NCBI GenBank assembly: GCA_046328875.1
Contig: JAXLVS010000001.1
Location: 2,513,315-2,577,314, forward strand
Direction of reading: 5' to 3'
Source of the DNA: Anaerolineales bacterium
GTDB taxonomy: Bacteria; Chloroflexota; Anaerolineae; Anaerolineales; Villigracilaceae
Length of the DNA: 64,000 nt
Position numbers and translations under genes: made by a program. This document shows positions 10,813 through 30,293 of the stretch, piece by piece (the first letter of the stretch is position 1; the number at the start of each line of letters is the position of its first letter). The notes under the pieces were generated by a model. The model was not told the origin of the DNA. It searched no databases and saw only the letters and a list, made by a program, of their open reading frames with translations.

Positions 10813-10814
10813 GA

Positions 10815-12074: not shown

Positions 12075-12096
12075 GGTTGTATCTCCTACTCTGTAT

Positions 12097-12135
12097 GAGA
12101 TTGCTTCGTCGGGCTAAAGCCCTCCTCGCAATGAC
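12097..12135. repeat. REP-like intergenic element
   Basis: GAGATTGCTTCGTCGGGCTAAAGCCCTCCTCGCAATGAC; matches from memory the GAGATTGCTTCG...CTCGCAATGAC repeat family; inner hairpin GGGCT-AA-AGCCC. Confidence 0.65.
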
Positions 12136-12138
12136 GAA

Positions 12139-13903: not shown

Positions 13904-14108
13904 GGGATAGTTTACCCCTCTCCCACAAACGCGTCAAGAGAATTTCTGCCTTAAAATAAACTATCCCAACAGGTTTTGTTGGGACGGATGCAAACAAGAA
14001 CCAAGTATAAATATTACTCAACAATCTTCCAGCCTATTAAAAAATAGGAAGCTAATAAAATATCAAAGCAATTTATTCACTTAAGAAGATAAAATTCAAT
14101 CAACTTTG

Positions 14109-14334
14109 ATGAATCAAGAATCGCCCCCCCCTCCTCCGACAATTGCTCGAGCGCCTTGAGCGTATCTCCGCCGATTCATATTGGGCGCACCGTGCCAGCG
14201 GAGTCCGCGGATCACTGCTGAGGATGTTAGAAATGCTGGAAAATGACACCCCAGTTTCTGGGGCTGAGTTGAAACGTTTGATCGATCTGGGATTCGTTTT
14301 GCTTGAAAAAGCAGCAAAAGAGAAAATCAGGTAA
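14109..14334 (+). pseudogene. Small hypothetical gene whose ATG is out of frame across a C8 tract
   Basis: ATG at 14109 joins the 14143-14334 ORF if one C of the run at 14124-14131 is removed, giving MNQESPPLLRQLLERLERISADSYWAHRASG; the alternative is an intact TTG start at 14143. Confidence 0.4.
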
Positions 14335-14359
14335 ATATTTCTTTGTACTGCAGAAATTT

Positions 14360-15778
14360 TTACTTGAAAATTCGATCAATTTCAAATTTTCCCACTTCCA
14401 CGATCAAATCATCACGAGAAATTTCATTTGCAAGCTTAACACCTGGCAAGCCAGTCAAGGGATCAATAATGGCAAAGCCCACTGTATATTTTCCATTTTC
14501 AAGCCCCACTATCGGTAATAAAAGCTCAGTAGAATATATCTGGTTCGGAAGTATTTTGCGTAAATCCATTTCCAATGGATATGAACCTACAACCATACCG
14601 TTTTTATCAAATAAATACACCATAGTCGGCCAGTCATAATAAAATGGGGCAATTCCATCATTTGAAAAACTAATCTTGATCTGCGCTTCTTTCCCAAACC
14701 TTACAGAGAGCGGCATTTCAACATGATGAACGTATAAACGGTATCCAATCGTAGAAAGTACCTGATCGATTCCGCCTTGTAAGTCTCCACTTAACTTGAC
14801 ATCATATGGACCACCTGGCCCAATAAAGGTTGTATGTGACTTACGCAATAGCTGAAGTGTTGTTTCAAGGTCAGTGCCATACATCTTTTCATTACTGACA
14901 TCAGGCGCTTGCTCACCACCTACAGGCGCCAATTCCCATCCACCAAGCATTGGCACAATCGTGTTATTTTCACCTGGCAAATACACGCCGCCATTTTCAA
15001 TCCAATGCAGCCAGCCATTCGTGTGTTCAACATTTCCAGTCATATCATTGAACAACCCTAAACTTAAGTCCCGCGCTATCGTAAATGGACGCCGCATTAG
15101 AAGATGTACACCAGGAAATGCATTTAGGTAATGATAAACATATATATTCCGAATATTCTCTGGAGGCAATTGCCTTAACTCAGAAGATATGTGCCATTCG
15201 CCCCAGTGTCCAAGACTCCCTAATTCTACAAAGGCAAAAAAGCCGTCTTTTCCATACCGATTACCCAGCACATTTATAGCTAGTTGATGGTACTTAATCA
15301 ATATTGGGTTTGAATAGTTGGGGCTAAAACCTTTTCCATATTGGTTATCATAAAACTCCCCATCCTTATTTATTTTTTCAAATAACCAATCAGGGATGTC
15401 CATATGAGCATCTCCTCTTGGAACATCAATAACAAATCGAAAAACGACCCTTTTCCCCTCCTGACGCCAACGAGCTAATTGTTGTCCCTTCTCAAATGTG
15501 TCGAAATCAAATATCCCTTCTTGAGGCTCAAAATCTCTCCATATTAAATCTGCATAGACAAGGGTGTGAGGCTGGTATATATCTTTTGAATTCGCCCACG
15601 GTGCCCACCCCATCAAAGGGTTTATGATGGGATGGGCGGCCGAATTAAAGTATAAAGTTTGTTTATTCAACTTGGTATATGAATTAAAAGCCAAAGGCGT
15701 TACCAATAAACACAAAATCATTAAGCAGAAAATAGCGCCAACAAAGGTGCGTTTTCTACCTACACCATTACGATTCAT
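14360..15778 (-). CDS. Membrane-anchored DUF4832-domain glycoside hydrolase-like protein
   Basis: N-terminal TM; WRDFEPQEGIFDF, VVFRF, GSLGHWGEWH, PVGGE, IGYRL; C-terminal Ig-like part with GIAPFYYDWP; likely start MNRNG at 15778. Confidence 0.7.
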   Translation of the reverse strand: MNRNGVGRKRTFVGAIFCLMILCLLVTPLAFNSYTKLNKQTLYFNSAAHPIINPLMGWAPWANSKDIYQPHTLVYADLIWRDFEPQEGIFDFDTFEKGQQLARWRQEGKRVVFRFVIDVPRGDAHMDIPDWLFEKINKDGEFYDNQYGKGFSPNYSNPILIKYHQLAINVLGNRYGKDGFFAFVELGSLGHWGEWHISSELRQLPPENIRNIYVYHYLNAFPGVHLLMRRPFTIARDLSLGLFNDMTGNVEHTNGWLHWIENGGVYLPGENNTIVPMLGGWELAPVGGEQAPDVSNEKMYGTDLETTLQLLRKSHTTFIGPGGPYDVKLSGDLQGGIDQVLSTIGYRLYVHHVEMPLSVRFGKEAQIKISFSNDGIAPFYYDWPTMVYLFDKNGMVVGSYPLEMDLRKILPNQIYSTELLLPIVGLENGKYTVGFAIIDPLTGLPGVKLANEISRDDLIVEVGKFEIDRIFK

Positions 15779-15794
15779 AATCAGTTTTTTTAAT

Positions 15795-16772
15795 TTATTT
15801 CCATGGTGCAATAATGGAGGGTGTTTCTGCATCAGCTGCATGTCCAAGATAAGGAAGGCCCCAAGCATCAGCCATGGTCCTGAGCAATGAATAATGGTTA
15901 TAAGGTGTGTCGTCTTCAAATCCTTTTTTTACTTCAGGAGATATAAAGACAACAGGTACACGACCACCTGCATCATCTTCGGGCAACCCACAGCAGCCTT
16001 CGTCACCATCCCCTTCTTCAAACATAAGCACGACAAGATAGTTGCTACTATCAGCGTCCAGAGCTGGAATAAGAACATCAAGCTGACGAGAAAGCCATTT
16101 ATCGGCAACACCTACGCTGCAATCATGTCCATCATTACAAATATTAGGAGTGATAAAAATGAAATTTGGAAGCGCATTGGCATCAATATCTGCTTTAAGC
16201 TCAGTGAATGGAACCACACTCTTTTCACACCGAGGTTTATCCAAGCGGATGGGGTCAAAATAAACAAAGGGATTATGTTTTTGTTCGTAGCTATCCTCGC
16301 TGCCAATATAACAAGGCTCTGGCATATCCTCCTGATATGTCTTCCAAGTCCGCCCACTGGCTTCTATCAAGTCTGGCAAACTGGTAGCATTAAAAAAACA
16401 ATCTGTGCAATTCTCAGTAATATCAAACGTTTCTCCACTCATCAAAGCAATGTAATTAGGAAGGCTTGGGTGTTTAACGCCATAATAATGTGTGAGTAAA
16501 GTGTATTGGTCTGCAAGCCCATTAAAAGTAGGCATAAGTGGACTAGATAGACTTTCATCAGATGCCCAGTTTTCGAAAATAATGATAACAATATGATCAA
16601 AATTTGGCACCTGTGCTTTAGACTCAGATGCCCCATCTACTGGTGGGGCATCGTTAGTTGGGGCAAGAGTTGTATCAGTAGGCAATGGAGCAGGTGTCGG
16701 AGTAACATTTGAGCCGCAAGCTGCAAGAACCAGCGCAAGAATCAACGTAAAAATTTTTTGAAAACGAGACAT
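15795..16772 (-). CDS. Lipoprotein phosphoesterase (alkaline-phosphatase superfamily, SapM/AcpA-like)
   Basis: Lipobox LVLAAC; HIVIIIFEN, HPSLPNYIALMSG (Ser nucleophile), KHNPF, NDGHD, HYSLLRT. Confidence 0.85.
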   Translation of the reverse strand: MSRFQKIFTLILALVLAACGSNVTPTPAPLPTDTTLAPTNDAPPVDGASESKAQVPNFDHIVIIIFENWASDESLSSPLMPTFNGLADQYTLLTHYYGVKHPSLPNYIALMSGETFDITENCTDCFFNATSLPDLIEASGRTWKTYQEDMPEPCYIGSEDSYEQKHNPFVYFDPIRLDKPRCEKSVVPFTELKADIDANALPNFIFITPNICNDGHDCSVGVADKWLSRQLDVLIPALDADSSNYLVVLMFEEGDGDEGCCGLPEDDAGGRVPVVFISPEVKKGFEDDTPYNHYSLLRTMADAWGLPYLGHAADAETPSIIAPWK

Positions 16773-16813
16773 GGTATCCTGAAATTAATCTGAACAAAAT
16801 TTAGAGAACATCA

Positions 16814-16855
16814 AAAAATCAAGCCGCTTTATTTAAATAAAGCGGCTTGATTTTT
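16814..16855. terminator. 42-bp perfect palindrome, probable terminator
   Basis: AAAAATCAAGCCGCTTTATTT|AAATAAAGCGGCTTGATTTTT, overlapping the DUF4956 stop codon. Confidence 0.75.
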
Positions 16856-17522
16856 AGCCATTATATTCTCCTGCATACTGAATCAGAGCTACATCAGTTA
16901 CTGCAGGTAAGTTTTTCAAAGTGTCCATAAAAGAAGTGTTGTTATTTTTTACAACAATCTCAACGGCAAGCTCGACGCTATCCTTGCGAACTGTTTTGGA
17001 TTTAATCTGAAACCGATTCGCACGTAAGATTCGGCGCACTTCATCTCCAATCGTTGCATCTTCACCAGAGTAATGAATAAGCAGAATAAATATTTCACGA
17101 GAGACGGATTTCCTGCCAATTGTCGCCAGCATAAGAATAACTATAACTGCACCCGTCAAAGCCAGATAATGAAGCTTAGCGCCGATAGTAATACCGCTAC
17201 CTACAGCCCAAAAAAGGAAAATAATATCTGCAGGATCCTTAATAGCAGTTCTATAACGGACAATACTCAGCGCACCAACCATGCCTAATGATAGTGCGAT
17301 ATTGGAGCTAATAGCCAATGTAATCATCGTAGTTAGAATCGTCAGGAGAGCCAGAGAAACTGAAAAAGCCTGGTTGTACACAACGCCACGAAACGACAAT
17401 TGGTATACATAATATATTAATAACCCGACGGCAAAAGATGCCAACAACGCTACAATGATGGGAGTCAATGTAGCCAACGCCCCCGAAAGATCAACCTGCA
17501 AAAACTTTAAGAGATTTTCCAT
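16854..17522 (-). CDS. DUF4956 family membrane protein
   Basis: SNIALSLGMVGALSIVRYRTAIKDP motif; about 5 hydrophobic helices plus a C-terminal ACT-like soluble domain. Confidence 0.85.
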   Translation of the reverse strand: MENLLKFLQVDLSGALATLTPIIVALLASFAVGLLIYYVYQLSFRGVVYNQAFSVSLALLTILTTMITLAISSNIALSLGMVGALSIVRYRTAIKDPADIIFLFWAVGSGITIGAKLHYLALTGAVIVILMLATIGRKSVSREIFILLIHYSGEDATIGDEVRRILRANRFQIKSKTVRKDSVELAVEIVVKNNNTSFMDTLKNLPAVTDVALIQYAGEYNG

Positions 17523-17546
17523 AATTTATTCCTTTCAAGATTTTTA

Positions 17547-18248
17547 TTAAACGTGAGAATATCTTCGGTGAATTGTCTTATCACAGCAAAGTATATATTT
17601 TGAAACCTCTGTATAATTAGCAGCATTGGAGGGCAATATTCTACGGATAATGCTTGGCAAAAATTCCGTAAATTTCACTTCCATCACTAGTAACCCTGGG
17701 TCCATTGTTTCAACCGTAGGCATATCTGCATCGAAAATATCAAAACCATCCACACCAGCTCGAATATTTTTATCAAATGTTATTCGAACATCCCCGGCTG
17801 CCATGACATACGGCTCGCGCTCATAATCAACCACAACCCTTGGGCGCATCAATTTAGAAACACATTCATGATAAAAAACTTTCAGCAAATCACTAGAATT
17901 CTTCAGAAGCACACTGTAGTCGCCCTGAATAACACCATATACTTGCTCTTTTGTCATCAATGATGATATTTTGTGGTTATATTGGCCAATCTTATTCTTT
18001 TTCTCAAAATTTATTCTTTTATCCGAATTGTTGTAAATTCGAATTCGATGTTTCGCTCTTTTTAGAATGCCAGCGTACTTATCCTCATATGAACTGTTGT
18101 TGTAATCATCAAAATACAAGCTGCGGACAGTATAAGATCCATCAGATGCCACATTAGCATCACTTGAAAGTACACTCTTTAATCTGGAACTGATCAAAGC
18201 GTGGTCTTGATAATTGATAATATATTTCATTTCATGTCGATATGCCAT
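17547..18248 (-). CDS. VTC-domain (polyphosphate polymerase-like, CYTH/TTM fold) protein
   Basis: RHEMKY, VRSLYFDD, KHRIRIY, FEKKNK, YEREPY, RITFD, MEVKF, SKY. Confidence 0.85.
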   Translation of the reverse strand: MAYRHEMKYIINYQDHALISSRLKSVLSSDANVASDGSYTVRSLYFDDYNNSSYEDKYAGILKRAKHRIRIYNNSDKRINFEKKNKIGQYNHKISSLMTKEQVYGVIQGDYSVLLKNSSDLLKVFYHECVSKLMRPRVVVDYEREPYVMAAGDVRITFDKNIRAGVDGFDIFDADMPTVETMDPGLLVMEVKFTEFLPSIIRRILPSNAANYTEVSKYILCCDKTIHRRYSHV

Positions 18249-18438
18249 CTTCAAAACCTGCCTATCTTAATCAAAGAATACTTTGCTTCATTAAGAAGTA
18301 AATATCCAACACCCAAATATATATTAAATCGGATTGGTATTCTACCAAATTCATTAAGCAGTTTCATCAAAGTATGTCCTTATAATTTCTTCACAAAGCT
18401 TTAAAGCTTATCATACATATACTCATACCAAGCTCAAT

Positions 18439-20241
18439 TTATTTTGAATTTTCCGTTACATCCCCATCAGGCGTAATAGTAAACAATTTCAGGCCGCCAT
18501 AAGGGTAACCATCAGCGTCTTCATAATCATCAAAGGCGTATTGAACTTTACCCGCTTCGTTGACAGCTAATACACGCCAAAAATAATTTCCCGGATCAAA
18601 AAGAGGGACATCAAGAGTTGTCACATTGACTGTGTCTGCTTGGTAAATAATACTAGTAAAACGTGGATCTCGACTCACTTCAAAATGGTATGTAATACTC
18701 TGAGGTGTGAAATTGTAAGCCTCCTCCCATTCAAACGTTAATACACCTGCAGAGACAACAGGAGTACCCAAATAGAAAGGCATCGGCATATTCAACGTTT
18801 CTAAATACAAATTATAGTTATTTTGAATCTCTGAAGGAATTAAAGAGTATGAGGAATTAAATTCAGCTTTGCTCCCAGGTAAATATCTTACGTCTGGAAG
18901 ACTAAATATAATCGGTTCGACGACAGGTCTGTAAATATCTAGTAAACTTTGAATCCTTTCGGGTGTTAATATTGTTATCAATTCATTCATCTTATCCGTT
19001 AATTTTTGACGATATACATCCGATCTCATAACGCGGTTATGAAGAATCCCACCCCAATAATTTGCAATCCCTACTTCCCAAGGTAAGTAAGGATACTCTC
19101 CAGCTTCCGTCCGCCTCTGGCGAAAAAGAGAATCATCATAATCCCACGGTAAAAAATACCATTTCTCACTATTTTGAGGGCTGTACAGAAAAAAGTTTTG
19201 ATTCTGAGTATCAACATTACCAACTAAAATATTAAACGCCATCCACGTAAAATAATTATCCGAATCAAAATATTTCTCAAACGATTGTTCAATAGGTATT
19301 TCTTCGTTGGTAATATCATCCAACATCTGAATAAGTTTAGAATGATCCCTACTTCCTTTAATCTCCAATCGATGTGAAAATTCTGCTTCATTGTAAAGTG
19401 GGTCATCTGCCATACGAATTTGATCAGCATAGCGATCGAACTCAAATGAGGTTGCTTTATATAATTGAGCATTACGATCAAGCAGATGATTTTTCAAGAA
19501 CGTTTTATTAACTTGCTCTACCTGAGTAAACAAGCCCAAGTCCACAAATTTTGTACTTACTGGAGTTGCAGTCTCGTCCTTTACATACAAATGCACAAAC
19601 TGTGTTCGAAGGCTAAGCATGTTAGGAACCAACTTCATCAAATCAAAGCTGAGTTTATTTCTTATGCGGGAGATATCGTAAATATGCTTATTAAGCGCAA
19701 ACGTAGTTTGTCCACGCCAATTACCTGCTCCTTCAAACAGTTCTATTTTGTAAGACTTTTGATGCTTAGAAGAAGAAGAGGAAGCTCCACGAATTTGAAT
19801 GGTTCCATTTGGCACCACAGCCCCATACCCTAATTCACCTGGCAGCGGTCCACTCTCATCTCCAAACTGAACAATTACCTCTGCTTCGCCAACAATATCA
19901 TTTGCTGAACGAGAACCATTGGTCCACTTACTAAAAGCGTTTACCTCTGTCCAAGTGTAATTAGTATTCTCCAACAAATTCCCTTTTCGAGCCGTAATAT
20001 ATACAACTACCACTGAACCAGGGTCATCATACTGAAATACGTTCTTATTATCCTGAAGCGGCAGGTCATTAATATTAACAATCGGAGCAAATGCAACAGG
20101 AGTTGTGGCAATAGGGACAGGAGTAATCGGGGTGGCAGCTTTATCTTTAACAATTTCCGATGTAGTGACAAGGCTGCCTAAAGAAACAAACAGCAAAAAT
20201 AACACCAGCATGCCTAATGCTATTTTTGATATTCGTATCAT
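18439..20241 (-). CDS. cotH: CotH-family kinase 2, N-terminal membrane anchor, C-terminal beta-sandwich
   Basis: IQIRGASS, KSYKIEL, NKLSFDL, GLFTQVE, NILVGNVD, LPWDYD. Confidence 0.85.
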   Translation of the reverse strand: MIRISKIALGMLVLFLLFVSLGSLVTTSEIVKDKAATPITPVPIATTPVAFAPIVNINDLPLQDNKNVFQYDDPGSVVVVYITARKGNLLENTNYTWTEVNAFSKWTNGSRSANDIVGEAEVIVQFGDESGPLPGELGYGAVVPNGTIQIRGASSSSSKHQKSYKIELFEGAGNWRGQTTFALNKHIYDISRIRNKLSFDLMKLVPNMLSLRTQFVHLYVKDETATPVSTKFVDLGLFTQVEQVNKTFLKNHLLDRNAQLYKATSFEFDRYADQIRMADDPLYNEAEFSHRLEIKGSRDHSKLIQMLDDITNEEIPIEQSFEKYFDSDNYFTWMAFNILVGNVDTQNQNFFLYSPQNSEKWYFLPWDYDDSLFRQRRTEAGEYPYLPWEVGIANYWGGILHNRVMRSDVYRQKLTDKMNELITILTPERIQSLLDIYRPVVEPIIFSLPDVRYLPGSKAEFNSSYSLIPSEIQNNYNLYLETLNMPMPFYLGTPVVSAGVLTFEWEEAYNFTPQSITYHFEVSRDPRFTSIIYQADTVNVTTLDVPLFDPGNYFWRVLAVNEAGKVQYAFDDYEDADGYPYGGLKLFTITPDGDVTENSK

Positions 20242-22022
20242 TCTAGCACCTCACCATCTGGAGTTACGTAAAATCGTTTTACGCCTGGGTGAGATCGAGA
20301 GTCGGTATCATAATATTTATCAAACGGATATTGTGAATATCCGGAAGTATTAGTCGCTACTACGCCCCAGAAATATTCTCCAGGACTTAACATATCAACC
20401 TGAATATTTGTCGTATTTGTTAAAACTTGATCAAATACAACATCATTAAATGCCCAATCCTTCGCTATTTGAAAATGGTAGGAAATATCCTCCCCATTAA
20501 AATCATGGGATTCGTCCCAAGCGAATGATAATTTTCCATCGCTAAGTGTCGGCTCTCCAAGATAAAATGGCATGGGCTTTTTCAACGATTCAACATATAA
20601 ATTGTAATTAGTCTCGACATCGCCTGGTATTAAATTTGCTATCAGATGGGATTGTGAGGGATCTGAAGGCATATAATAATTATCAGGTAACACCTGCGTA
20701 TATTGATCAACCACCGGCTGGTAAAGCTTAATTAAATTTTCTATCCGTTGAGGCGTTAATATTTCCTTCACTTCAAGGACTTTTTCATCCAGGGTCTTTC
20801 TATATTTTTCGACGCTCAAAACCCTTCTATGTAAAACCACTCCCCAGTAATTTGACACCCCGTTTTCCCACGGTGCAATACTATATGAAACAAGGTTGGG
20901 TTGATTCTGTAATGGGAACGCATCATCGTAATCCCATGGAATAAAATACCACTTAGTTCCATTCTTAGGGCTATAAAGAAAATAATTCTGCGACTGTGTA
21001 TCGATATTACCAACAAGGATATTAAAAGCCATCCAAGTAAAATAGTTATCTGAATTAAAATATTTTTCGAAAGTCTGCTCTATTGGTATGTCATAATTAT
21101 TGACGTCATCCAAAAGTTGAATAAGCTTAGCATGATCCTTATTCCCCTTGATCTCTAATCGTAAAGAAAAAGAGTCTGCGTCATAAAGTGAATCAGTTAC
21201 CAAACGTATCTGATCAGCATATCGATAAAACTCAAAATCATTCGCTTTATAAAATTGGCCATCACGGTCCAGATGGCGGCTTTCAAGGAACCGCTTATTC
21301 GGTTGCTCTACCTGAGTAAACAAACCATAATCCACAAATTCAGTTTGTACTGGATCAGAAGTCTCATCTTTTACATAAACATGAACAAACTGGGTGCGAA
21401 GACTGATCATGTCAGGAATATCTTTCAACAAGTCAAAGCTAAGTTTATTTCTAAATCTTGAGCCATCATATATATGCTTATTAAGATTGATCGTAGATTG
21501 ACCGCGCCACGTACCCGCATTATTAAACAGCTCTACTTTGTAAGATTTCTGTGGCGCAAGTGAAGTAGTTGCACCCCGAATCTGTATAGTACCATTTGGT
21601 GTTAAAGCACCGTACCCCACTTCCCCTGGCAATGGACCAGTCTCATTTCCGAATTGTACAATCGCCTCTGCTTTCCCTACCTCAACAACCTTATCTTCCA
21701 ACTCCCAATACTTAGTAAAGTCGTTGATCTGTTGCCATGTGTAATCCGTCTTATCAGAAGAGTTCCCTTTTCTTATTGTTAAATACATTGTCACCACTGA
21801 ACCAGGGCTATCATTTTGGTACACAACCGGATTGTCCTGAAACGGAAGGTCATCAATATTCCCAGCAGTTTCAACAGGTGCCCCGTATAAGGGTGTGGCG
21901 ATCAACGTAGCAACCGTCAAGTTCTTATCAATAGCTGCACCAGAAGGCAAACTATTGACTGAAACATATATCAGAAATAATGCAGCAAGAATTATTATAG
22001 TTATACGAAAAATACGTCTCAT
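20238..22022 (-). CDS. cotH: CotH-family kinase 1, N-terminal membrane anchor, C-terminal beta-sandwich
   Basis: IQIRGATT, KSYKVEL, NKLSFDL, GLFTQVE, NILVGNID, IPWDYD; 4-nt overlap with the paralogue. Confidence 0.85.
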   Translation of the reverse strand: MRRIFRITIIILAALFLIYVSVNSLPSGAAIDKNLTVATLIATPLYGAPVETAGNIDDLPFQDNPVVYQNDSPGSVVTMYLTIRKGNSSDKTDYTWQQINDFTKYWELEDKVVEVGKAEAIVQFGNETGPLPGEVGYGALTPNGTIQIRGATTSLAPQKSYKVELFNNAGTWRGQSTINLNKHIYDGSRFRNKLSFDLLKDIPDMISLRTQFVHVYVKDETSDPVQTEFVDYGLFTQVEQPNKRFLESRHLDRDGQFYKANDFEFYRYADQIRLVTDSLYDADSFSLRLEIKGNKDHAKLIQLLDDVNNYDIPIEQTFEKYFNSDNYFTWMAFNILVGNIDTQSQNYFLYSPKNGTKWYFIPWDYDDAFPLQNQPNLVSYSIAPWENGVSNYWGVVLHRRVLSVEKYRKTLDEKVLEVKEILTPQRIENLIKLYQPVVDQYTQVLPDNYYMPSDPSQSHLIANLIPGDVETNYNLYVESLKKPMPFYLGEPTLSDGKLSFAWDESHDFNGEDISYHFQIAKDWAFNDVVFDQVLTNTTNIQVDMLSPGEYFWGVVATNTSGYSQYPFDKYYDTDSRSHPGVKRFYVTPDGEVLE

Positions 22023-22052
22023 TCAAGGTACCTCATTGAAAATAAAATCCAT

Positions 22053-23489
22053 TTAAGAATCAAGCCTATCAGCCAAACGCGTTAAAAAGCTCTTTTTCTG
22101 CACAAAAAACACTGGTTGTTTCGTAAATATATAGTAATCAAGACGGTCGGTATAAGAGAATAAAAGGCGTAACGCTACTATGTATAATACAACTCCAGCT
22201 AAAACAAAACCGAAGCCATAATAAGCTTGTGATAAGGAAATCGTATATAAAGTCACCAAGGTGTTGACCACAAAAAAAGAGGAGACAGCCCATAAAGCAT
22301 CAGTATTACTTGAAAAATAAAGCAGGAAAAGCATTAGCACATTTCCTATCGCGTAAATACCATACCCGACGCAAAGAACGCGAAACATTTCAATCATACT
22401 GGCAGTAAAACCCAGCTTGAGATATGACAACATTTCACCAACTAATGTAATTGAGAACAGTGTTATGAAAATCTGCTGTATTGCCAAAAAGAAAATTTCC
22501 TGCTTAAGAACATCCAACATATCATCATAAGCTTTTTCAATATTACTTAAAGAGCCATCCCCATTTAACAAGCTAAAATACAAACGATATTTGGGGTAAA
22601 AATTCACCTCAACTGAGGTAACAAAGTTAACTGTTGTTACAAGGCTGGTCATAAACGCCAAAAGCGCGGGGATGTCATGCCTGGGTGCATGGTAAAAAAG
22701 CCCATCCACTTGAATGCCCCATGGGCTTGTCCACATCAACAATAGATGAATAAAAAGGCCGAGTGTGGAAAAAAAGCCAACAAAGGGCAGTTGAGGGTAT
22801 TTATCTATCCATTCAAGAAACTTAAATGGGCTTCCTGATCCCATGGGAAAAAATTCATGTAACACAATTGTAAAGTCAACGATCAAGACCCCGTAGGCTA
22901 CGCAAGTACCAGCGAGTAAAGAGGCGACAACTTCGTATTTCAAGAAGATAAAAATAAGACTTACCAATAAGCCACTTACTATTCCTATCAAGAAGCCAAG
23001 TAAGATTCCACGATATTCTTTTACTGCAGATATATAGCTGATCTGAATCCAAGCTACAACTCCTTCGCAAAACAGAATAAAGGAATATAAGCCATATGTA
23101 AAATCCAACTTGCTAATTATAAGGAATGCAACCCACATCACTGAGCCAATAACCAGGAAAAACGAAATCGCACCATACATAGATGGCAAAACTCTTTCAT
23201 GGGCATCTATGTAGAGCATATCAGCGACAAATCTTGATAACACAAAAAGAAGAGAGCTGGTCAGGATGAGCGAAAACAACAAAGAGTATGTAATGATTAC
23301 TACTATCAGATCTTGCTGATGTATAGATGCGCCACCAAAAGTCGAAATATACCTTGCGCCTAAAAGAAAAAGCGCTCCCATCAACATGGGACCGGCCACT
23401 ACCAAGCTGGCATATAGATTTGCCCTGGCTTGCAACAATAAGCCTTTCTTTGCAAAGAGCTTTTTTAACTCAAATCCGATTCCTGCCAT
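22053..23489 (-). CDS. pelG: Pel exopolysaccharide exporter (MATE/flippase-like)
   Basis: Starts MAGIGFELKKL; RFVADMLY; FYPKYRLYF; about 12 TM helices; follows pelF. Confidence 0.92.
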   Translation of the reverse strand: MAGIGFELKKLFAKKGLLLQARANLYASLVVAGPMLMGALFLLGARYISTFGGASIHQQDLIVVIITYSLLFSLILTSSLLFVLSRFVADMLYIDAHERVLPSMYGAISFFLVIGSVMWVAFLIISKLDFTYGLYSFILFCEGVVAWIQISYISAVKEYRGILLGFLIGIVSGLLVSLIFIFLKYEVVASLLAGTCVAYGVLIVDFTIVLHEFFPMGSGSPFKFLEWIDKYPQLPFVGFFSTLGLFIHLLLMWTSPWGIQVDGLFYHAPRHDIPALLAFMTSLVTTVNFVTSVEVNFYPKYRLYFSLLNGDGSLSNIEKAYDDMLDVLKQEIFFLAIQQIFITLFSITLVGEMLSYLKLGFTASMIEMFRVLCVGYGIYAIGNVLMLFLLYFSSNTDALWAVSSFFVVNTLVTLYTISLSQAYYGFGFVLAGVVLYIVALRLLFSYTDRLDYYIFTKQPVFFVQKKSFLTRLADRLDS

Positions 23490-24892
23490 TGGGAAATTGC
23501 CCTTTCATATACGTTTAAATACTGATCGATCATATTGTTGATATCAAAATACTTCTTAACTCTTTTTTGTCCTGCCTCACCCATCTGCTTTCTTTTTTCT
23601 TCATTCAAGCACATCTCAAGCAAGGCCTGATATAGTTTCGATTGATGCATGGGTGGAACACAAATTCCAGCATGCCCAAAATTATCACCAACATCACCTT
23701 CAATAAGATCACGACAACTACCAACATCTGTCGTAACTACAGGTCGCTTCGCCGCCATGGATTCCAAGACTGCAAAAGGCTGACCTTCTGAAATACTCGT
23801 TAAAATCGTAAAATCTATTTTCTCAAGATAGCTCGTTGTCCTGACTGTGCCTGGAATGATAATGTCTTTAATTTGCAAGTACTCAATTAAATCTAAACAT
23901 TCTTGGTGATATTCTTCATCATCCACGCCACCAATAATGTGCAAACGAGCATTCTCGACATCTTGTTTTAATCGTGAGAAGGTATAGATAAGGGTTTTGA
24001 GATCTTTGATTGGAGCAAACCGTGCAATAATCGCAATATCTATCCAACCATCTTTCGGTTTATCAGGAATAGAAATAAAAGATTCAAGGTGAAGGCCATT
24101 TCCAACCACATCACACTTGTCTTCTGGACAGCCCAGCTCCTGCTGCACAAGGCTTGCACGGCGATACAAACTGGTAACTCTATGAGCTCGCGTATAGGCA
24201 AGCCGTGCAAACATAAAAAACATAGAGATCCACAAATCTTTAAAATATGACTTCACCCAATCAGACCGTAAAATCTCCTCTTCTCTTTCTCTTGTGTAAA
24301 TACCATGCTCTGTTAAAACAAAAGGTTTATTGTATTTCATAGAGGCTAAAGCAGCTAAAACACCTGCGTAGCCAGTTGAAGGGCTATGGTAAAGGTCTGC
24401 CTCGGGCATAGGCTGGCCAATTAGATAAAGCAAAGGTAAAAACATTGAACGAATTGTCCAGAAAAGGTCTTTAAAACCAGCAAAAGGATAATCATCTCTT
24501 GTGTAGTCTTTTAGGATTTTTAAAAACTCTTCGCTCAAGAAAAATTCCACTGGCTTATTTGATTGCAAGTTGAAACTATCAAGTATCACTCGCCAATCCG
24601 GATCGCCACTTCGGATCATTTTGGACATCGCTTCTCTTTCCGCCGCGGTGAATTTTAAATTTGGATTTTTATTAATACGCAAGTTAAATGAAGCACTTAA
24701 AAAGTTTTCATGTACAGTAACCACGTTTGAGGGGAGCTCATAAGCAAACTTTCCTGCCTGACCTTCTTGATCCGTTATCGTCCACAAAACGAATTCATGA
24801 TCTGGCAAAGCGCGGATATATCCATCAACCCACGTGGAAACTCCGCCACGAACATACGGATAACTACCTTCAAGAATAAAACAAATCTTCAA
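23465..24892 (-). CDS. pelF: Pel GT4 glycosyltransferase
   Basis: EGSYPYVRGGVSTW, TGYAG, TEHGIYTRERE, IKDLKT, SISEGQPFAVLE (EX7E). Confidence 0.95.
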   Translation of the reverse strand: MKICFILEGSYPYVRGGVSTWVDGYIRALPDHEFVLWTITDQEGQAGKFAYELPSNVVTVHENFLSASFNLRINKNPNLKFTAAEREAMSKMIRSGDPDWRVILDSFNLQSNKPVEFFLSEEFLKILKDYTRDDYPFAGFKDLFWTIRSMFLPLLYLIGQPMPEADLYHSPSTGYAGVLAALASMKYNKPFVLTEHGIYTREREEEILRSDWVKSYFKDLWISMFFMFARLAYTRAHRVTSLYRRASLVQQELGCPEDKCDVVGNGLHLESFISIPDKPKDGWIDIAIIARFAPIKDLKTLIYTFSRLKQDVENARLHIIGGVDDEEYHQECLDLIEYLQIKDIIIPGTVRTTSYLEKIDFTILTSISEGQPFAVLESMAAKRPVVTTDVGSCRDLIEGDVGDNFGHAGICVPPMHQSKLYQALLEMCLNEEKRKQMGEAGQKRVKKYFDINNMIDQYLNVYERAISQWQESDLS

Positions 24893-24895
24893 CTC

Positions 24896-26746
24896 TTACT
24901 CCTCAAAAAATATGGTAACGCTCGACTTAGTAGCTTGAACCAAATAAAGATCTGTAGAAATTTGAGTAATAACGCCGCCTTCAATTGACGAAGGATTTTT
25001 TGTAGAACGTAACATCAACCAGGCTTCGTCATAAAAATTACCGAAGGTTATTTCGAGGTTCCCGTTATTATCATGTGTTTCCATCGCAAGACGCGCAAAA
25101 CGTTGGACAGCCATCGCACCTTCTCGCCCGGTCATGTTTCGCAAGCCAGGTGCAGAATCCTTAAGCCATTGTAAAAATCTATCATATTGATCCTTAAGGT
25201 CTGGCCAACCTTTCTCAGCACCACGATCAGGATCAAGAAGATCATCAGGATGGAGAAAGTGGGTATTAACATAGTGCATACGAAGCTCATTTATAGCTGC
25301 CCACTGCATATATTCATCATCATAAATATTGTATCCAGAAATAACCCGTGGAAACTCAATAATTCCATCTGATGCCTCAGTAAATTCCTGCACATACTCC
25401 TGCGCATCTTCATCTGGGATGTAAATACTTGCAATATATTTTAAGTCAGGTATGACCAAAGGAAGCCAACGACGAGCGTCCGAACAAAGAATGTTCGATG
25501 GCGGCATATATCCAAGGAATTTATAATTAGGGAATACAGAATTTCCATAAGTAAAGACTTCACTCAAAGAAAGTTGTTCTGATTCTGTGTCTGGCCAAGA
25601 AGGGTAACCCTTTGAAGCATTTACATCATTGTCGTCAGTACAGAATGGAACATGATTATGCCCATGGAAAATAATTTCACCGCCGGCCGCAAGCAGGGAT
25701 CTACCAAAATATTTATGAGTTTCAGGTTCTAACTGTTTCACCAACGGAGGCGTAACTACCTGTGTATATGTCTCTATCATCCCCCCTGTATACCTAATAT
25801 CATACTTGGTAGCTAGCTTCTCCATATCTGGCCACCAAACTTCTCTATAAAAGGTCGCGGTGTCCATATCATAGAATCGTGTTATGTAATCATCCGATCC
25901 CTCAGGCAAAGGAGCAGGAAAGTCGTCAATATAAAAAATAGAGCTATTGATAACCGGATAAACAAAAACATCACTCAAAAGACTATAAGATGCAGCAAGT
26001 ACGCCTCTGGCAGCCTTATCTCCAAACTGATCAGAGTTAATAAATACAATACGTCCCTTACCATTATCGCACTGCCAGAGAAGGGGAATCTTGTTGCCGT
26101 CGGCACTTGTCAAATGAACTGTACAAGCATCGTTCAATTCGACGGGGTAACTGGTACCATTAATAAACTGCAAACCAAGCTTCGTGCCTTTCGCCCCAGG
26201 GAACAAGTCTGTGACAAACTCGACTCCCTTTGCTGATGCTAGTTCACCAGCCGAGCTTACAATACCCAACTTTCGATAATTTAACGTGAAGGTGCTTGAT
26301 GGGTCTGGGCGAATAGCAAATAATACTTTTCCACCGCTATCTACCCAATTCATGATGGAAGCTGTTTGTGATTCCAAATTAGATATATCCAACACTGCAA
26401 AAACTACAGTTTTGTACTTTGACAAATCGATCTTGTTGGGTGCGTCCACATCATAAACGTCATACTTAACCCGCATACTATCCAAGACCGCAAATACATC
26501 ATCGACCAAAATCCCCATATATTTATCAGTATTTTGTGAGTTTATTATCACCAAAGCGTCAACCGGCTTATCAGGAAAAAAGTTCTTCACTTCAATAATA
26601 TCATCCGGTAAAAATTGTTTTGATTGGTAATATTTAGAACTGACTTCATAAGTTATACCAGTCCTCTGAATAAACAGAGTTCCAGCCAACGCAACCAACA
26701 AAACTAATGGCAAAAGAATAAGAGAAAAGCTATAGCTGTGCTTCAT
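24896..26746 (-). CDS. pelA: DUF2194 polysaccharide deacetylase (monoderm PelA deacetylase-like)
   Basis: N-terminal TM; YIDDFPAP, HGHNH, YMPPSN, FLHPDD (CE4-like motifs); TAATG coupling to the upstream gene at 26746. Confidence 0.8.
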   Translation of the reverse strand: MKHSYSFSLILLPLVLLVALAGTLFIQRTGITYEVSSKYYQSKQFLPDDIIEVKNFFPDKPVDALVIINSQNTDKYMGILVDDVFAVLDSMRVKYDVYDVDAPNKIDLSKYKTVVFAVLDISNLESQTASIMNWVDSGGKVLFAIRPDPSSTFTLNYRKLGIVSSAGELASAKGVEFVTDLFPGAKGTKLGLQFINGTSYPVELNDACTVHLTSADGNKIPLLWQCDNGKGRIVFINSDQFGDKAARGVLAASYSLLSDVFVYPVINSSIFYIDDFPAPLPEGSDDYITRFYDMDTATFYREVWWPDMEKLATKYDIRYTGGMIETYTQVVTPPLVKQLEPETHKYFGRSLLAAGGEIIFHGHNHVPFCTDDNDVNASKGYPSWPDTESEQLSLSEVFTYGNSVFPNYKFLGYMPPSNILCSDARRWLPLVIPDLKYIASIYIPDEDAQEYVQEFTEASDGIIEFPRVISGYNIYDDEYMQWAAINELRMHYVNTHFLHPDDLLDPDRGAEKGWPDLKDQYDRFLQWLKDSAPGLRNMTGREGAMAVQRFARLAMETHDNNGNLEITFGNFYDEAWLMLRSTKNPSSIEGGVITQISTDLYLVQATKSSVTIFFEE

Positions 26747-27660
26747 TACACTATCTCCTCTGTCCAAATCTTGACCTGTTCTTTTCCATCTCTAGTCCAG
26801 TTGATCTTTTGATTTCTCATGCTCGAAATAATCTCCTGCAATTTATTACCGTCCCGACCATTAACACACACGCGAATAGACTCGATCCAGGAGCGCTCAT
26901 CCGTTGGCCAATTTAGTATCAAATAATCCCCAATTTCAAATGCAGAGTTAAATTCTGCAAGTTCAATACAATTCCGTAATTTCTTTATTATTATATTTCT
27001 GTCGTTTTTCGCTTTTTCAAGCTTTTGATCTAGAACCTTGGAGTAAACAATGCGAAGATTTTTCAATAAATGTAATTCCAAGAGGCCGCTTTCTATATAT
27101 TTCTCTAACGTATCGATATACTCATCTAATGTGCTTGAATCATCAGGATTGTTTTCCACTGCAACTGCCAGCTTTTGAATGGACAACTGAAAATCTTTTT
27201 GCGCCTTTGAAATCGTGGTCGTAGCATAATGTGAAGTTTCTACATCGTCGTTGTACTTTGCTATATTCAAAATATCCAAGTATTTAAGAGGGTCAGTATA
27301 CAGAGTTTCAAGCATGAATCTTCGACGCACTTTAACATCGTTAATTAAAATTGCCTCTTCCAATGGCACAATGTCTCCATTCTCATGAAAACTTTTCAAG
27401 GTCACCCACAAAATATCGTCTCCCAAAGTAAGGGGCTCAAGTTCTACAGGCTTGGATGCTTGCTTATTCCAAATGTTCAATGCCTCGATCACTATAGCCG
27501 TAACAGGACCAAATATGGGGACAAAAAATATAAGAAGAATTTGCTCTTTTCGAAGGTGAGACTTTCCAGAATATATAAATACAGAATATCCTATGGTGAG
27601 TAGGATATGAAAACTTAGCACAATCAATTCAATTTGAATTTTCACCAATCTCTTCTCCAA
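26746..27660 (-). CDS. pelE: PelE-like protein (two N-terminal TMs, helical/TPR-like C-terminus)
   Basis: Position between pelD and pelA; VPLEEAIL, ETSHYA; the start may instead be TTG/GTG at 27648/27645. Confidence 0.65.
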   Translation of the reverse strand: MEKRLVKIQIELIVLSFHILLTIGYSVFIYSGKSHLRKEQILLIFFVPIFGPVTAIVIEALNIWNKQASKPVELEPLTLGDDILWVTLKSFHENGDIVPLEEAILINDVKVRRRFMLETLYTDPLKYLDILNIAKYNDDVETSHYATTTISKAQKDFQLSIQKLAVAVENNPDDSSTLDEYIDTLEKYIESGLLELHLLKNLRIVYSKVLDQKLEKAKNDRNIIIKKLRNCIELAEFNSAFEIGDYLILNWPTDERSWIESIRVCVNGRDGNKLQEIISSMRNQKINWTRDGKEQVKIWTEEIV

Positions 27661-27686
27661 AAAGTTACAAAAAGCAATTCCATTAA

Positions 27687-29861
27687 TTACTCTAGCGGAA
27701 TCTCGTAGGCATCTATCAACCTGCTCTTAACACCCAACTTATCTAAACGTTCGACCACTTCCAAAGAAGCTTGTTTATCAGCTTGCGATAACAAGATATA
27801 GGAAATACCATTTTTTAACATTCCGACAACGTCTGCCGAGCGTATTCCAAGTGAAATTTTGGAATATTTTTTCTGAACATCAACTTCAGATTCTTGAAGC
27901 ATAATTACCTGAAAGTCAGATATCTTATTTTTCTTCATTTCAAGGCGAACTCTTAATGTGTCAATAAAAGCATTATGATTCAATATTCTAGTGGCAGGCA
28001 GGTACATTCTTTCATAATTCGCGTCTAAGAACAAAGTCGCCCGCACCAAAGAGGCTTCGATCATTCCGCAAATCACTTTAAATAGGTTGTAATAATATGT
28101 GGAATATTGCTCAAAATCAGCTGACCAGATCACAACCATTGCCACAGGCACATTAAATGGATAAGAGTTATTTAGGACCGGGGCGATATATGCAGGATAA
28201 TTTTCTAGCAGGGCTGCGTTTTGGAATATTTTTCCCTGCTCAATACTTTCAAGTGCTTCAGGGTAATCAGATAACTTTAACGACTTCGCAACAGCTACAT
28301 TCATCTCTGCAGAATTCACCTCAAGCCTTGCGAAGGCCCGGTTACTATCCAACGAATAGATTGCAATATTTTTATTATCCATCAGCTCTTCAAGGATATT
28401 TAGCGCTCTGAAGTAAACTGCGTGTTCTTGTAGTTCATCAAGTTCACGCGTAATAGTAAATATTTTTCCAAAACTATCACGGTACCCAATCAAACGTTCA
28501 CGAAACTCATCTTTAAGATCTCTGACTTCGTTAAAGACTTCATACAAAAAGGAATATTTCTCCAAAACGAGATCGTATTGTTTCTTACCGTACAGAATAT
28601 TATTTTCAGTCTTATCGTGGTTATAGCCCGTGATCAAGCCTATAGCAAAATAAAGCACAAAAGGAAACCAGTTTCCTACATTATAGACAAGCAACTTCCA
28701 GTCCACACCTAAACCTAGCCATGTATAAAGCACAAAAATACTTACAAGCACAGATGCATATAGACCGAATTGAAGGCCATAAATGGATCCCATAATCACA
28801 ACATACACCAAACGAAAATCCACATATTGAAACTGAATAAGAGTGCCAGTTAATTGGCTTAAATACATGGCAGCTAAGCCGCCCAAAACTAATTCTGTCC
28901 ATTTTAGAAAAGTTGGGTGTTCAGACAGTCGATCAAACAATCTAAAAATTGCAGACTTTTTCTTTACTAACCCTTTTGGAGTTGTATCAACAAAGTCTTC
29001 CAGTTCAGTAGCAAGGTCATGAACCTCATACCAATCAAACAATCTCTTTGCAGCTGCTACAGTTACTGGTTTTGTAGAAGCAGCCTTTTTATCTACATCA
29101 TCAGCATAAGTTACATTTTCATAATGCTTGCTTAGTAATCCAACAAGTTCGGAATACTTTATCAATTTAGAAGATGACAAATTTACAACCAAAGACTCAG
29201 TTGAATATTCATCATCAATAGCGCGCTTTATAAAATCGATAACATCTTCTGCATGTACAAAGCTGCAGAGAGTATCTGGGGAGCCCGGAAGTAGGATCTC
29301 CCCTTTCTGATTTCCATCCCTTATCAGCCGATAAAACAAACCAGCCTTCTCGTCGAGTCCGTACACATATGGCAGGCGCAATATGGTGAGATTCATATCG
29401 AATTCATCTCGATAAATCCTGCAATATCGCTCACCGACAGACAAAGTAAAGCCATTGATCGAAGAAGGCTGTGGCATGGTTTCTTCAAGCGTGTCTGGCG
29501 CATCGCCATAGACTTCAGTAGACGAAACGAAAAAGAATCTGCGTATCCCGCCCTTTTTACAAAGCTCTAAAGTATTTCTCAACCCATCAAGTTGCTGTCC
29601 AACATGAAATTCATCTTCAGAACCGTCAAGCAACTCTTCTCTAGTGGAAAGGTAGAGAACAATATCGAATTTATAGGAAGAAAGCGCATCACGGAAAATC
29701 TTTTCAGATGGATTTATTGAATGCAAAACTATACTATCCACCTTAATGTCCAAATCGCTCGCATTATATGAAGCCAACACAACTTTGTTCTTCTCTTTAA
29801 TAAATTCTTTAGCCAGAGGTACAGCAAGAGAAGAAAGATTTCCCGTTATCAGTATATTCAC
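27687..29861 (-). CDS. pelD: Degenerate SDR epimerase domain fused to PelD-like receptor (TMs, GAF, degenerate GGDEF)
   Basis: SDR scaffold (ILITG, FVSSTEVYG, ILRLPYVYG) with altered motifs; 4 TMs; FRERLIGYRDSFGKI coiled coil; GAF; C-terminal RSAD (RxxD I-site). Confidence 0.8.
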   Translation of the reverse strand: MNILITGNLSSLAVPLAKEFIKEKNKVVLASYNASDLDIKVDSIVLHSINPSEKIFRDALSSYKFDIVLYLSTREELLDGSEDEFHVGQQLDGLRNTLELCKKGGIRRFFFVSSTEVYGDAPDTLEETMPQPSSINGFTLSVGERYCRIYRDEFDMNLTILRLPYVYGLDEKAGLFYRLIRDGNQKGEILLPGSPDTLCSFVHAEDVIDFIKRAIDDEYSTESLVVNLSSSKLIKYSELVGLLSKHYENVTYADDVDKKAASTKPVTVAAAKRLFDWYEVHDLATELEDFVDTTPKGLVKKKSAIFRLFDRLSEHPTFLKWTELVLGGLAAMYLSQLTGTLIQFQYVDFRLVYVVIMGSIYGLQFGLYASVLVSIFVLYTWLGLGVDWKLLVYNVGNWFPFVLYFAIGLITGYNHDKTENNILYGKKQYDLVLEKYSFLYEVFNEVRDLKDEFRERLIGYRDSFGKIFTITRELDELQEHAVYFRALNILEELMDNKNIAIYSLDSNRAFARLEVNSAEMNVAVAKSLKLSDYPEALESIEQGKIFQNAALLENYPAYIAPVLNNSYPFNVPVAMVVIWSADFEQYSTYYYNLFKVICGMIEASLVRATLFLDANYERMYLPATRILNHNAFIDTLRVRLEMKKNKISDFQVIMLQESEVDVQKKYSKISLGIRSADVVGMLKNGISYILLSQADKQASLEVVERLDKLGVKSRLIDAYEIPLE

Positions 29862-30293
29862 AACAAATCCTTCCTTTTCCTAATAATAGAAGCAATAAAA
29901 TTTCGGCGAAATTAATCGTATAGCTGACAAGTAGTATTGCAGCCAAAAATATTCAAAGATGAGAGAAGCAACTTTTAATAAAAAATATTACAATCACAAA
30001 ATCGTAACACTTAAAGCTGGCTCTCTCAGAAAAAAGTATTTGTAAAGCAAGTGAATGTAATTAAAACAGCTATTGTAAATAATTGCACAACTAATAATAG
30101 GCTAAATATACAACCAAGAAATAAAAATATCAATAATTTTTGTATTTTAACATGAAAGAGACAGATTGGCTCCACTTTACAGGTGCATTTTTTCATTCCT
30201 GGAACATTAAGTCGCTAAAAAACCAGTAAAAGGTTCGTTCTTTTTGTAAGAACTCCTTCAAAAACTCCGTCCAAACCGCTAGGAGACGAAAAA

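Follow-up and report, generated by a model that had tools for sequence, protein, structure and literature searches.

The window, a stretch of 64,000 nucleotides (nt) from an Anaerolineales bacterium of the phylum Chloroflexota (GCA_046328875.1, contig JAXLVS010000001.1, positions 2,513,315 to 2,577,314), contains four open reading frames (ORFs) within positions 16854-22022, all on the minus strand. They encode two CotH paralogs (CotH1, 20238..22022, and CotH2, 18439..20241), a soluble VTC protein (17547..18254) and a DUF4956 membrane protein (16854..17522). Pfam matches identify each of them, with 217 and 223 bits for CotH1 and CotH2, 130 bits for VTC against a cut-off of 23, and 42.5 bits for DUF4956 against a cut-off of 30.6; no NCBIfam model was found for any of the four. 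The CotH-CotH-VTC-DUF4956 group belongs to the tail part of a longer pel operon, whose genes are contiguous and co-directional on the minus strand in the order pelD-E-A(DA)-F-G, cotH, cotH, VTC, DUF4956, a phosphoesterase lipoprotein gene and a DUF4832 gene. A preliminary description of this DNA had proposed that VTC and DUF4956 together make and export polyphosphate for use by the CotH kinases.

These four genes make up the accessory module of a Gram-positive-type Pel operon, a module that is on record but whose function is unsolved. For streptococci, clostridia and bifidobacteria, Whitfield et al. 2020 reported an accessory group encoding a CotH-like kinase, a poly-phosphate polymerase (PPP), DUF4956 and DUF4832 contiguous with pelDEA(DA)FG, and found the occurrence of cotH/PPP/DUF4956 to be correlated with an N-terminal epimerase domain on PelD (PMC7112168). 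In Streptococcus intermedius, the corresponding proteins are SIR_1594, an exported CotH with an FN3 domain; SIR_1593, a cytoplasmic VTC-like polymerase; SIR_1592, an MgtC-like protein with four transmembrane (TM) helices and an ACT domain; and SIR_1591, a DUF4832 protein that is an active glycoside hydrolase (PMC12345266, mBio 2025 and preprint). The preliminary description knew of no functional assignment for such genes, which is true of their function, but the cluster itself was on record in both studies.

Our locus resembles the described group in gene content and gene order immediately downstream of pelG, and shares with it an epimerase or short-chain dehydrogenase/reductase (SDR) domain on PelD, an exported CotH with a C-terminal beta-rich domain, a soluble VTC and a multi-TM DUF4956 with an ACT-like domain. 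It differs in its host, which is a Chloroflexota (Anaerolineales-like) organism from wastewater rather than a member of the Bacillota or Actinomycetota, and in lying on a low-GC (guanine plus cytosine) island. It also differs in the tandem duplication of CotH and in a phosphoesterase lipoprotein gene inserted between DUF4956 and DUF4832. What is new relative to the literature is a Chloroflexota example with these last two features; the arrangement itself is not new.

VTC and DUF4956 are an invariant pair

The conservation of the module was followed in two scans. The first, restricted to one genome per species, returned 80 loci that were annotated with phmmer. The second was a metagenome scan seeded with the divergent VTC of Paenibacillus cellulosilyticus, and it yielded a sister clade. 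VTC is followed by DUF4956 in 80/80 genome loci, with a median gap of 14 nt and a gap of no more than 30 nt in 66 of them, which suggests co-translation. The same order is kept in all 65 evaluable metagenome loci of the sister clade, giving 145 of 145 evaluable loci overall. In the genome loci, CotH adjoins the pair in 78 of 79 that could be evaluated for it, 60 of 68 evaluable ones carry pel genes, and the accessory order of the window recurs in related loci (L002, L008 and L059, for example). These synteny counts rule out chance or a binning artefact as the source of the four-gene co-location. There is strong support for VTC and DUF4956 being a functional pair.

The accessory module in the window has one sizeable gap, the 184 nt between CotH2 and VTC (18255-18438), which contains two weak sigma-70-like matches. 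VTC and DUF4956 may have an additional promoter of their own in this gap.

The trio of CotH, VTC and DUF4956 is not confined to pel loci. Seven Paenibacillus loci (L072 and L075-L080) carry VTC-DUF4956-CotH and no pel genes, and six of the seven (L072 and L076-L080) have a divergent purple-acid-phosphatase-like gene whose product bears an N-terminal anchor. Around the P. glacialis trio, no polysaccharide gene was found within ~8 kb. On a Pseudobutyrivibrio plasmid the trio lies inside a polysaccharide locus with glycosyltransferases of families GT2 and GT4 and acyl- and pyruvyl-transferases, and on a Planococcus plasmid (L082) it lies beside a HEAT-repeat protein and a chitin-synthase-like GT2. 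The Planococcus layout agrees with that of NELoc-2 in Clostridium perfringens (PMC2879425). Like the window, NELoc-2 and the Planococcus maritimus plasmid place VTC, a membrane protein (222-226 residues long) and CotH beside a polysaccharide synthase, although theirs is the chitin-synthase-like GT2 with its HEAT-repeat protein and that of the window is Pel. NELoc-2 has two copies of the VTC-DUF4956 pair, placed around a resolvase, and its membrane proteins that follow VTC, CP4_0461 and CP4_0464, are annotated as 'tubulin/FtsZ' GTPases (PMC2879425). Their length, predicted cellular location and place after VTC, together with the Planococcus locus, indicate that both are almost certainly misnamed DUF4956 proteins. 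The authors of the S. intermedius study could not find CotH, VTC and DUF4956 together outside pel loci (PMC12345266), a statement that these examples contradict (L072, L075-L080, L081, L082 and NELoc-2).

In the sister clade, the partner of the pair is usually a different protein. Among 37 loci evaluable for the partner gene, 28 encode a protein of the Cthe_2159 family (PF14262), three a CotH and six neither. L083 (NZ_CP054613 525078-543734, at 8935-12353) is an example, with Cthe_2159 downstream in place of CotH; others are found among L085-L164. The one Cthe_2159 protein that was checked has a lipoprotein signal, and in the literature we came across no link between Cthe_2159 and either VTC or DUF4956. 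Every adjacent partner whose N-terminus was examined is exported, whether a CotH from the 80 genome loci, a sampled purple acid phosphatase or Cthe_2159; in particular, each full-length CotH in the genome loci bears either a lipobox or a TM segment at its N-terminus. Exported phosphatases also recur beside the module in two unrelated forms, a PF04185 lipoprotein in Anaerolineales-type loci and the purple acid phosphatase in Paenibacillus. Additionally, an OmpR-type response regulator and a histidine kinase lie near VTC-DUF4956 in 17 of 30 sister-clade loci. The invariant unit is VTC plus DUF4956, for which at least two kinds of exported partner serve as alternatives, CotH being one of them. 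The trans-membrane layout given in the preliminary description, in which the enzyme is cytoplasmic, DUF4956 sits in the membrane and the partners are exported, is borne out.

Two further loci differ from the rest in composition or in label. In Butyrivibrio sp. YAB3001 (L032, 9980-11382), VTC-DUF4956 occurs with no CotH, Cthe_2159 or pel gene nearby, and its flanks hold a PGA_cap capsule-synthesis gene and the potassium-uptake genes TrkA/TrkH. A contig binned as 'uncultured Flavobacteriales' (L004, CAYHFJ010000176.1) carries CotH-CotH-VTC-DUF4956-phosphoesterase in the gene order of the Anaerolineales loci, and its VTC is 65% identical to that of the window. This Flavobacteriales bin assignment is probably wrong.

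Features of the VTC, CotH and DUF4956 proteins

The VTC protein has 235 residues in a single domain and no hydrophobic segment; its start is probably the ATG at 18248, since its homologs are 233 residues long. VTC (PF09359) is the only Pfam family that it matches at E <= 0.01, over positions 2-232 of the 235 in the profile. The ExK, RSLYFD and EVKF motifs that had been read from the sequence are all present, as HEMK at residue 7 (E8-x-K10), RSLYFD at 44 and EVKF at 192. A single-sequence search of the PDB gave chance matches only, and yeast Vtc4 was reached with a profile of 26 homologs, which matches the Vtc4 catalytic domain (3g3q) with an E value of 1.9e-4. In this alignment R70, R72 and E192 correspond to R264, R266 and E426 of yeast Vtc4, the residues that have been mutated to inactivate VTC (PMC9911596). 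Vtc4 numbering was derived with an offset of 185 that was checked on these anchors. Further pairs are K86 with K281, Y144 with Y359, R146 with R361, R157 with R373, S218 with S457 and K219 with K458, and we take these additional Vtc4 residues to be catalytic as well.

All of the VTC residues aligned to Vtc4 catalytic residues, together with R6, E8 and K10, are invariant in the homolog alignments. Even across homologs that are 22-28% identical to the first sequence of the alignment, R70, R72, E192 and 22 further residues do not change. The invariant E8 sits within the R-x-E-x-K of bacterial VTC proteins; yeast Vtc4 presumably has a threonine at this position, and we take the bacterial motif to be nearer the classical ExExK. 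We assign the protein as a Vtc4-like tunnel enzyme that is likely a polyphosphate polymerase.

Compared with the yeast VTC complex (PDB 3g3q, 7ytj and 8i6v), the bacterial system has in common a tunnel domain with equivalents of nine Vtc4 residues and the obligate association of the enzyme with a protein of the membrane. It differs in that Pfam and hydropathy reveal neither an SPX domain nor a C-terminal DUF202-type membrane domain in VTC, in that its membrane partner is unrelated to Vtc1, and in that the destination of any polymer would be the cell exterior, where in yeast it is the vacuole.

The wider VTC family was also surveyed. Among the best 150 of 7049 representative clusters, no Rosetta-stone fusion of VTC to DUF4956 or CotH was found. 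About 30 of these 150 representatives are longer proteins of 360-620 residues. In the ten that were scanned, the VTC domain is C-terminal and follows an N-terminal extension of 140-400 residues with no Pfam family, except in P0243, which looks chimeric as a gene call. Five extensions that were read (P0247, P0248, P0250, P0265 and P0328) are of low complexity and very basic, being rich in R, K, P and Q. Tails of this kind would have an affinity for polyanions, polyphosphate included.

The two CotH proteins are tandem paralogs, 55% identical, and share an architecture of N-terminal signal anchor, CotH domain (PF08757) and C-terminal beta-rich domain. As the preliminary description had stated, each has one N-terminal anchor and intact NxD and WDYD motifs. 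The anchor is in both cases a single hydrophobic segment (residues 4-22 in CotH1 and 7-25 in CotH2) preceded by basic residues (MRRIFR... and MIRISK...). The motifs are GNID at 338, NYFLY at 346 and WDYD at 363 in CotH1, including D341, N346 and D364, and GNVD at 341, NFFLY at 349 and WDYD at 366 in CotH2. CotH2 matches Bacillus cereus CotH (5jd9) with an E value of 7e-15 and both catalytic aspartates aligned. D344 and D367 of CotH2, like D341 and D364 of CotH1, correspond to the aspartates of the B. cereus 'NFD' and 'WDYD' motifs, 23 residues apart. In B. subtilis CotH, mutation of D228 or D251 abolishes activity, and we infer that the window residues are equivalent to this pair because the 23-residue spacing is equal and the offset is a constant 4 residues.

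These proteins thus share with the Bacillus spore-coat kinase a CotH domain and its putative catalytic aspartates, but they are exported through an N-terminal anchor, whereas Bacillus CotH is assembled in the mother cell. They are also ~240 residues longer and have no spore-coat context. A plasmid search with CotH gave three matches, over the kinase core only and in spore-forming genera; to these plasmid-borne proteins of Bacillus, Brevibacillus and Alicyclobacillus, which are presumed to be of the spore-coat type, the window proteins are only ~25% identical.

DUF4956 is polytopic, with hydrophobic segments between residues 18 and 135. An AlphaFold2 model of low confidence (predicted local distance difference test, pLDDT, 53; predicted template-modelling score, pTM, 0.27; shallow alignment), from which the secondary structure alone was used, places five helices at 12-135 and then a beta-alpha-beta-beta-alpha-beta succession at 144-215, which is ACT-like. 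This tail would be cytoplasmic by the positive-inside rule, because basic residues follow TM1, TM3 and TM5. Hydropathy, model and charge distribution agree here with the polytopic protein and cytoplasmic ACT-like tail of the preliminary description. Within the family, a stretch of the form SLGMVGALSIVR-x-RT-x2-KDP-x-D is nearly invariant, and an invariant R89-x-R91-x3-K95 cluster lies at the cytoplasmic end of TM3, its most conserved helix.

A profile search of the PDB with DUF4956 returned nothing meaningful and no VTC chain, and a lenient Pfam scan gave no DUF202 match. The closest relationship that we detected is to the MgtC/SapB/YhiD proteins. With hhalign, the DUF4956 profile aligned to Escherichia coli YhiD with a probability of 51% and an E value of 1.5e-4 over 63 columns. 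Pfam MgtC (PF02308) gave sub-threshold matches in 10 of 13 DUF4956 relatives, the best with an E value of 1.9e-4, and none in the window protein. DUF4956 and the MgtC/SapB/YhiD proteins are similar in size, have several TM helices and a C-terminal ACT-like domain, and show weak sequence similarity over TM3-TM5. They differ in that the window DUF4956 falls below the MgtC Pfam model, has its own invariant SLGMVGALSIVR-x-RT motif and is always paired with VTC.

A possible phosphate chemistry at the membrane

A tunnel enzyme coupled to a membrane protein, joined by an exported partner and frequently by an exported phosphatase, is a recurring combination that favours phosphate chemistry moved across the membrane. 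We tentatively interpret the module of the window in this way. DUF4956 would hold VTC at the inner face of the membrane, where VTC would polymerise phosphate from ATP into polyphosphate, and the pair would deliver either the chain itself or phosphoryl groups from it to the outer face. The two anchored CotH kinases would be the extracytoplasmic clients in this version of the cassette, and they would phosphorylate, or attach phosphate polymer to, nascent, partly deacetylated Pel or a surface or matrix protein. The phosphoesterase lipoprotein would trim or recycle phosphate, and the DUF4832 hydrolase would cut Pel. Of these steps we infer that polyphosphate is the product, that it crosses by way of DUF4956 and that CotH uses it, as well as what CotH acts upon. 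Export of polyphosphate by VTC-DUF4956 is plausible, and polyphosphate as the phosphoryl donor of CotH is speculative. As a whole, this mechanism of membrane polyphosphate synthesis, outward delivery and use by CotH on Pel or surface proteins is possible, with more doubt than confidence attached to it.

Yeast offers a parallel for the first steps. On its own, the Vtc4 tunnel domain works slowly and apparently requires a membrane channel that draws off the growing chain; basic residues encircle the cytoplasmic mouth of this channel. The basic cluster of DUF4956 could, by analogy, play the role of this ring. Genetic data from S. intermedius also count in favour of the mechanism, in that deletion of the DUF4956 and CotH orthologs alters the level of Pel and aggregation. 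Each of the accessory genes was deleted in that study; loss of SIR_1592 (DUF4956) gave more Pel and loss of SIR_1594 (CotH) gave less, and both lowered aggregation in artificial sputum (PMC12345266).

Several observations weigh against polyphosphate delivery. Opposite shifts in Pel on loss of DUF4956 and of CotH are not predicted by a simple linear pathway, and no change was reported for deletion of SIR_1593, the VTC gene (PMC12345266); the mutant phenotypes partly speak against polyphosphate as the phosphoryl donor of CotH. In the sister clade a non-kinase partner, Cthe_2159, or no partner at all prevails. DUF4956 appears to be a distant, divergent MgtC/YhiD-like protein and is not a Vtc1 homolog; its alignment by hhalign to Vtc1, the sequence of which was confirmed to be identical to 8i6v_A, reached a probability of only 0.4%. 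Salmonella MgtC, moreover, acts by binding and regulating other proteins and not as a channel (PMC12345266). Within the predicted membrane core of DUF4956 there are no conserved basic residues. The AlphaFold2 model of DUF4956 was too poor for docking or pore analysis, and that of VTC (pLDDT 51, from a shallow alignment of close homologs) was too poor for a fold search or docking. We know of no kinase of the CotH fold that uses polyphosphate, and literature searches turned up no biochemical study of a bacterial VTC-domain protein or of DUF4956. The preliminary description had cast VTC and DUF4956 as a split counterpart of Vtc4 and its membrane channel; the functional pairing has held, but with a membrane part unrelated to Vtc1, the likeness of DUF4956 to the yeast channel is an analogy only. 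Nor can the fuelling of CotH be what the pair generally serves for, since the sister clade mostly has a non-kinase partner or none.

The module can also be read as regulatory, with no polymer crossing the membrane. DUF4956 would then be an MgtC-like membrane protein that binds and regulates others, with its ACT-like domain as the sensor of a ligand in the cytoplasm, VTC would make or hydrolyse a cytoplasmic phosphate compound, and CotH would phosphorylate a surface or synthase-associated protein. The outcome would be a tuning of polysaccharide output or of the envelope together with phosphate homeostasis, a process to which Salmonella MgtC has been linked (PMC12345266). The distant similarity of DUF4956 to MgtC/YhiD speaks for such a role, and the opposite Pel phenotypes suit regulators better than they suit a supply chain. 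The two-component systems of the OmpR type that adjoin the pair in the sister clade fit as well, and the S. intermedius authors themselves reasoned that polyphosphate may remain cytoplasmic and that the genes may serve phosphate metabolism or regulation (PMC12345266). Regulation leaves unexplained, however, why the pair is so regularly joined to exported partners of unrelated folds and why exported phosphatases recur in its neighbourhood, and the cassette also travels without any polysaccharide synthase to regulate. We judge it somewhat unlikely.

Another possibility is that polyphosphate is exported but serves as a polyanion in the matrix, cross-linking cationic, partly deacetylated Pel or, in other versions of the module, binding Ca2+ and beta-helix proteins. 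CotH would then be an ordinary ATP-dependent kinase that acts on another substrate and makes no use of polyphosphate. The evidence for a membrane-coupled polymerase applies equally here, and the operon includes a PelA-type deacetylase. Pfam names Cthe_2159 for a carbohydrate-binding domain and not as a kinase, and some VTC homologs carry the long, very basic and disordered N-terminal tails described above. Against it, the module is found without pel or any exopolysaccharide genes, the ATP source of an exported kinase is left unexplained, and deletion of VTC in S. intermedius had no visible effect on aggregation (PMC12345266). A structural role of this kind seems to us unlikely.

A further reading is that VTC-DUF4956 is a widespread bacterial polyphosphate synthase-exporter, with a membrane part unrelated to the eukaryotic VTC channel, that puts polyphosphate on the cell surface, and that exported CotH proteins modify Pel, other exopolysaccharides or surface proteins with polyphosphate in place of ATP as phosphoryl donor or by transferring the polymer itself. 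It would explain how extracytoplasmic kinases obtain their energy, but it is decidedly improbable. Very unlikely is that VTC is another kind of tunnel enzyme (an inorganic triphosphatase, NTP phosphohydrolase or cyclase) in a module unrelated to polyphosphate: basic tunnel residues are common to tunnel enzymes, so that their conservation alone does not prove polymerase chemistry, E8 is invariant in R-x-E-x-K and Vtc4 is matched just at the profile level, but the protein scores 130 bits on VTC as its sole Pfam family and keeps every aligned Vtc4 catalytic residue.

If delivery of polyphosphate to CotH is correct, bacteria would have a second, membrane-coupled polyphosphate route besides PPK1/PPK2, as well as a means of powering kinase chemistry outside the cell. 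Phosphate polymers could then be attached to Pel and other polysaccharides of biofilms, or cross-link them, which would bear on how streptococci, clostridia and sludge Chloroflexi construct their biofilms and on how these can be attacked. Independent of mechanism, VTC and DUF4956 form a two-gene cassette that stays constant while its exported partners can be exchanged, and its occurrence beyond pel loci corrects the 2025 S. intermedius paper on this point (PMC12345266). The results also indicate simpler experimental systems, such as the four-gene Paenibacillus unit.

The remainder of the operon and its flanks

Upstream of the accessory genes and also on the minus strand, the operon encodes the Pel machinery. 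Its first gene (27687..29861) specifies a PelD-like protein with an N-terminal SDR/epimerase domain (Pfam Epimerase, 70 bits), a hydrophobic block at residues 354-386 and a C-terminal region, and its orthologs hold the same position in related loci. A small PelE-like membrane protein (26746..27660) with two N-terminal hydrophobic helices follows; a Pfam scan gave no family above the cut-off, and the assignment was made from position and from phmmer orthologs located between pelD and pelA(DA). Next come an exported, PelA deacetylase-like protein with an N-terminal anchor (24896..26767; Pfam DUF2194, 488 bits), the PelF glycosyltransferase (23465..24892; DUF3492, 259 bits, and Glycos_transf_1 of GT4, 80 bits) and the polytopic membrane protein PelG (22053..23489; Pfam PelG, 393 bits).

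Downstream of DUF4956, again on the minus strand, lies the gene for an exported lipoprotein of the phosphoesterase family (15795..16772; PF04185, 118 bits), of the acid phosphatase or phospholipase C type. It has the lipobox LAAC at residue 16 and weak NCBIfam matches to acid phosphatase and phosphatidylcholine-hydrolysing phospholipase C (PC-PLC), and an ortholog occupies the same position at L001, L003 and L004. The last gene (14360..15778; Pfam DUF4832, 70 bits) encodes a membrane-anchored DUF4832 protein, the counterpart of S. intermedius SIR_1591. Its longest ORF (14360-15919), which has a TM segment at residues 59-77, starts with a TTG at 15919 and shares 125 nt with the phosphoesterase gene. 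The Met codon at 15778 is probably the start rather than this TTG, as it would be followed by a basic stretch and then the TM segment. Beyond this gene, a consensus scan picked out a terminator-like hairpin (14248..14264, minus strand) with a 7-base-pair stem containing five GC pairs, for which the evidence is weak; in total, the promoter and terminator scan gave a number of sites not above the shuffled expectation.

The cluster (~14000-30200) has a GC content of 0.37-0.40, compared with 0.45-0.51 in its flanks, so that the whole pel-cotH-VTC-DUF4956 cluster is probably a horizontally acquired island. No tRNA genes were found in the window, and there were no integrases among the two ORFs checked at each boundary. 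A beta-oxidation operon and its TetR regulator border the island at one end, and a thioredoxin-reductase/glutaredoxin fusion gene borders it at the other. The locus was detected in wastewater, activated-sludge and groundwater metagenome runs, all of the DNA type and with no RNA run among those listed, and the nearest homologs come from metagenome-assembled genomes of Anaerolineales.

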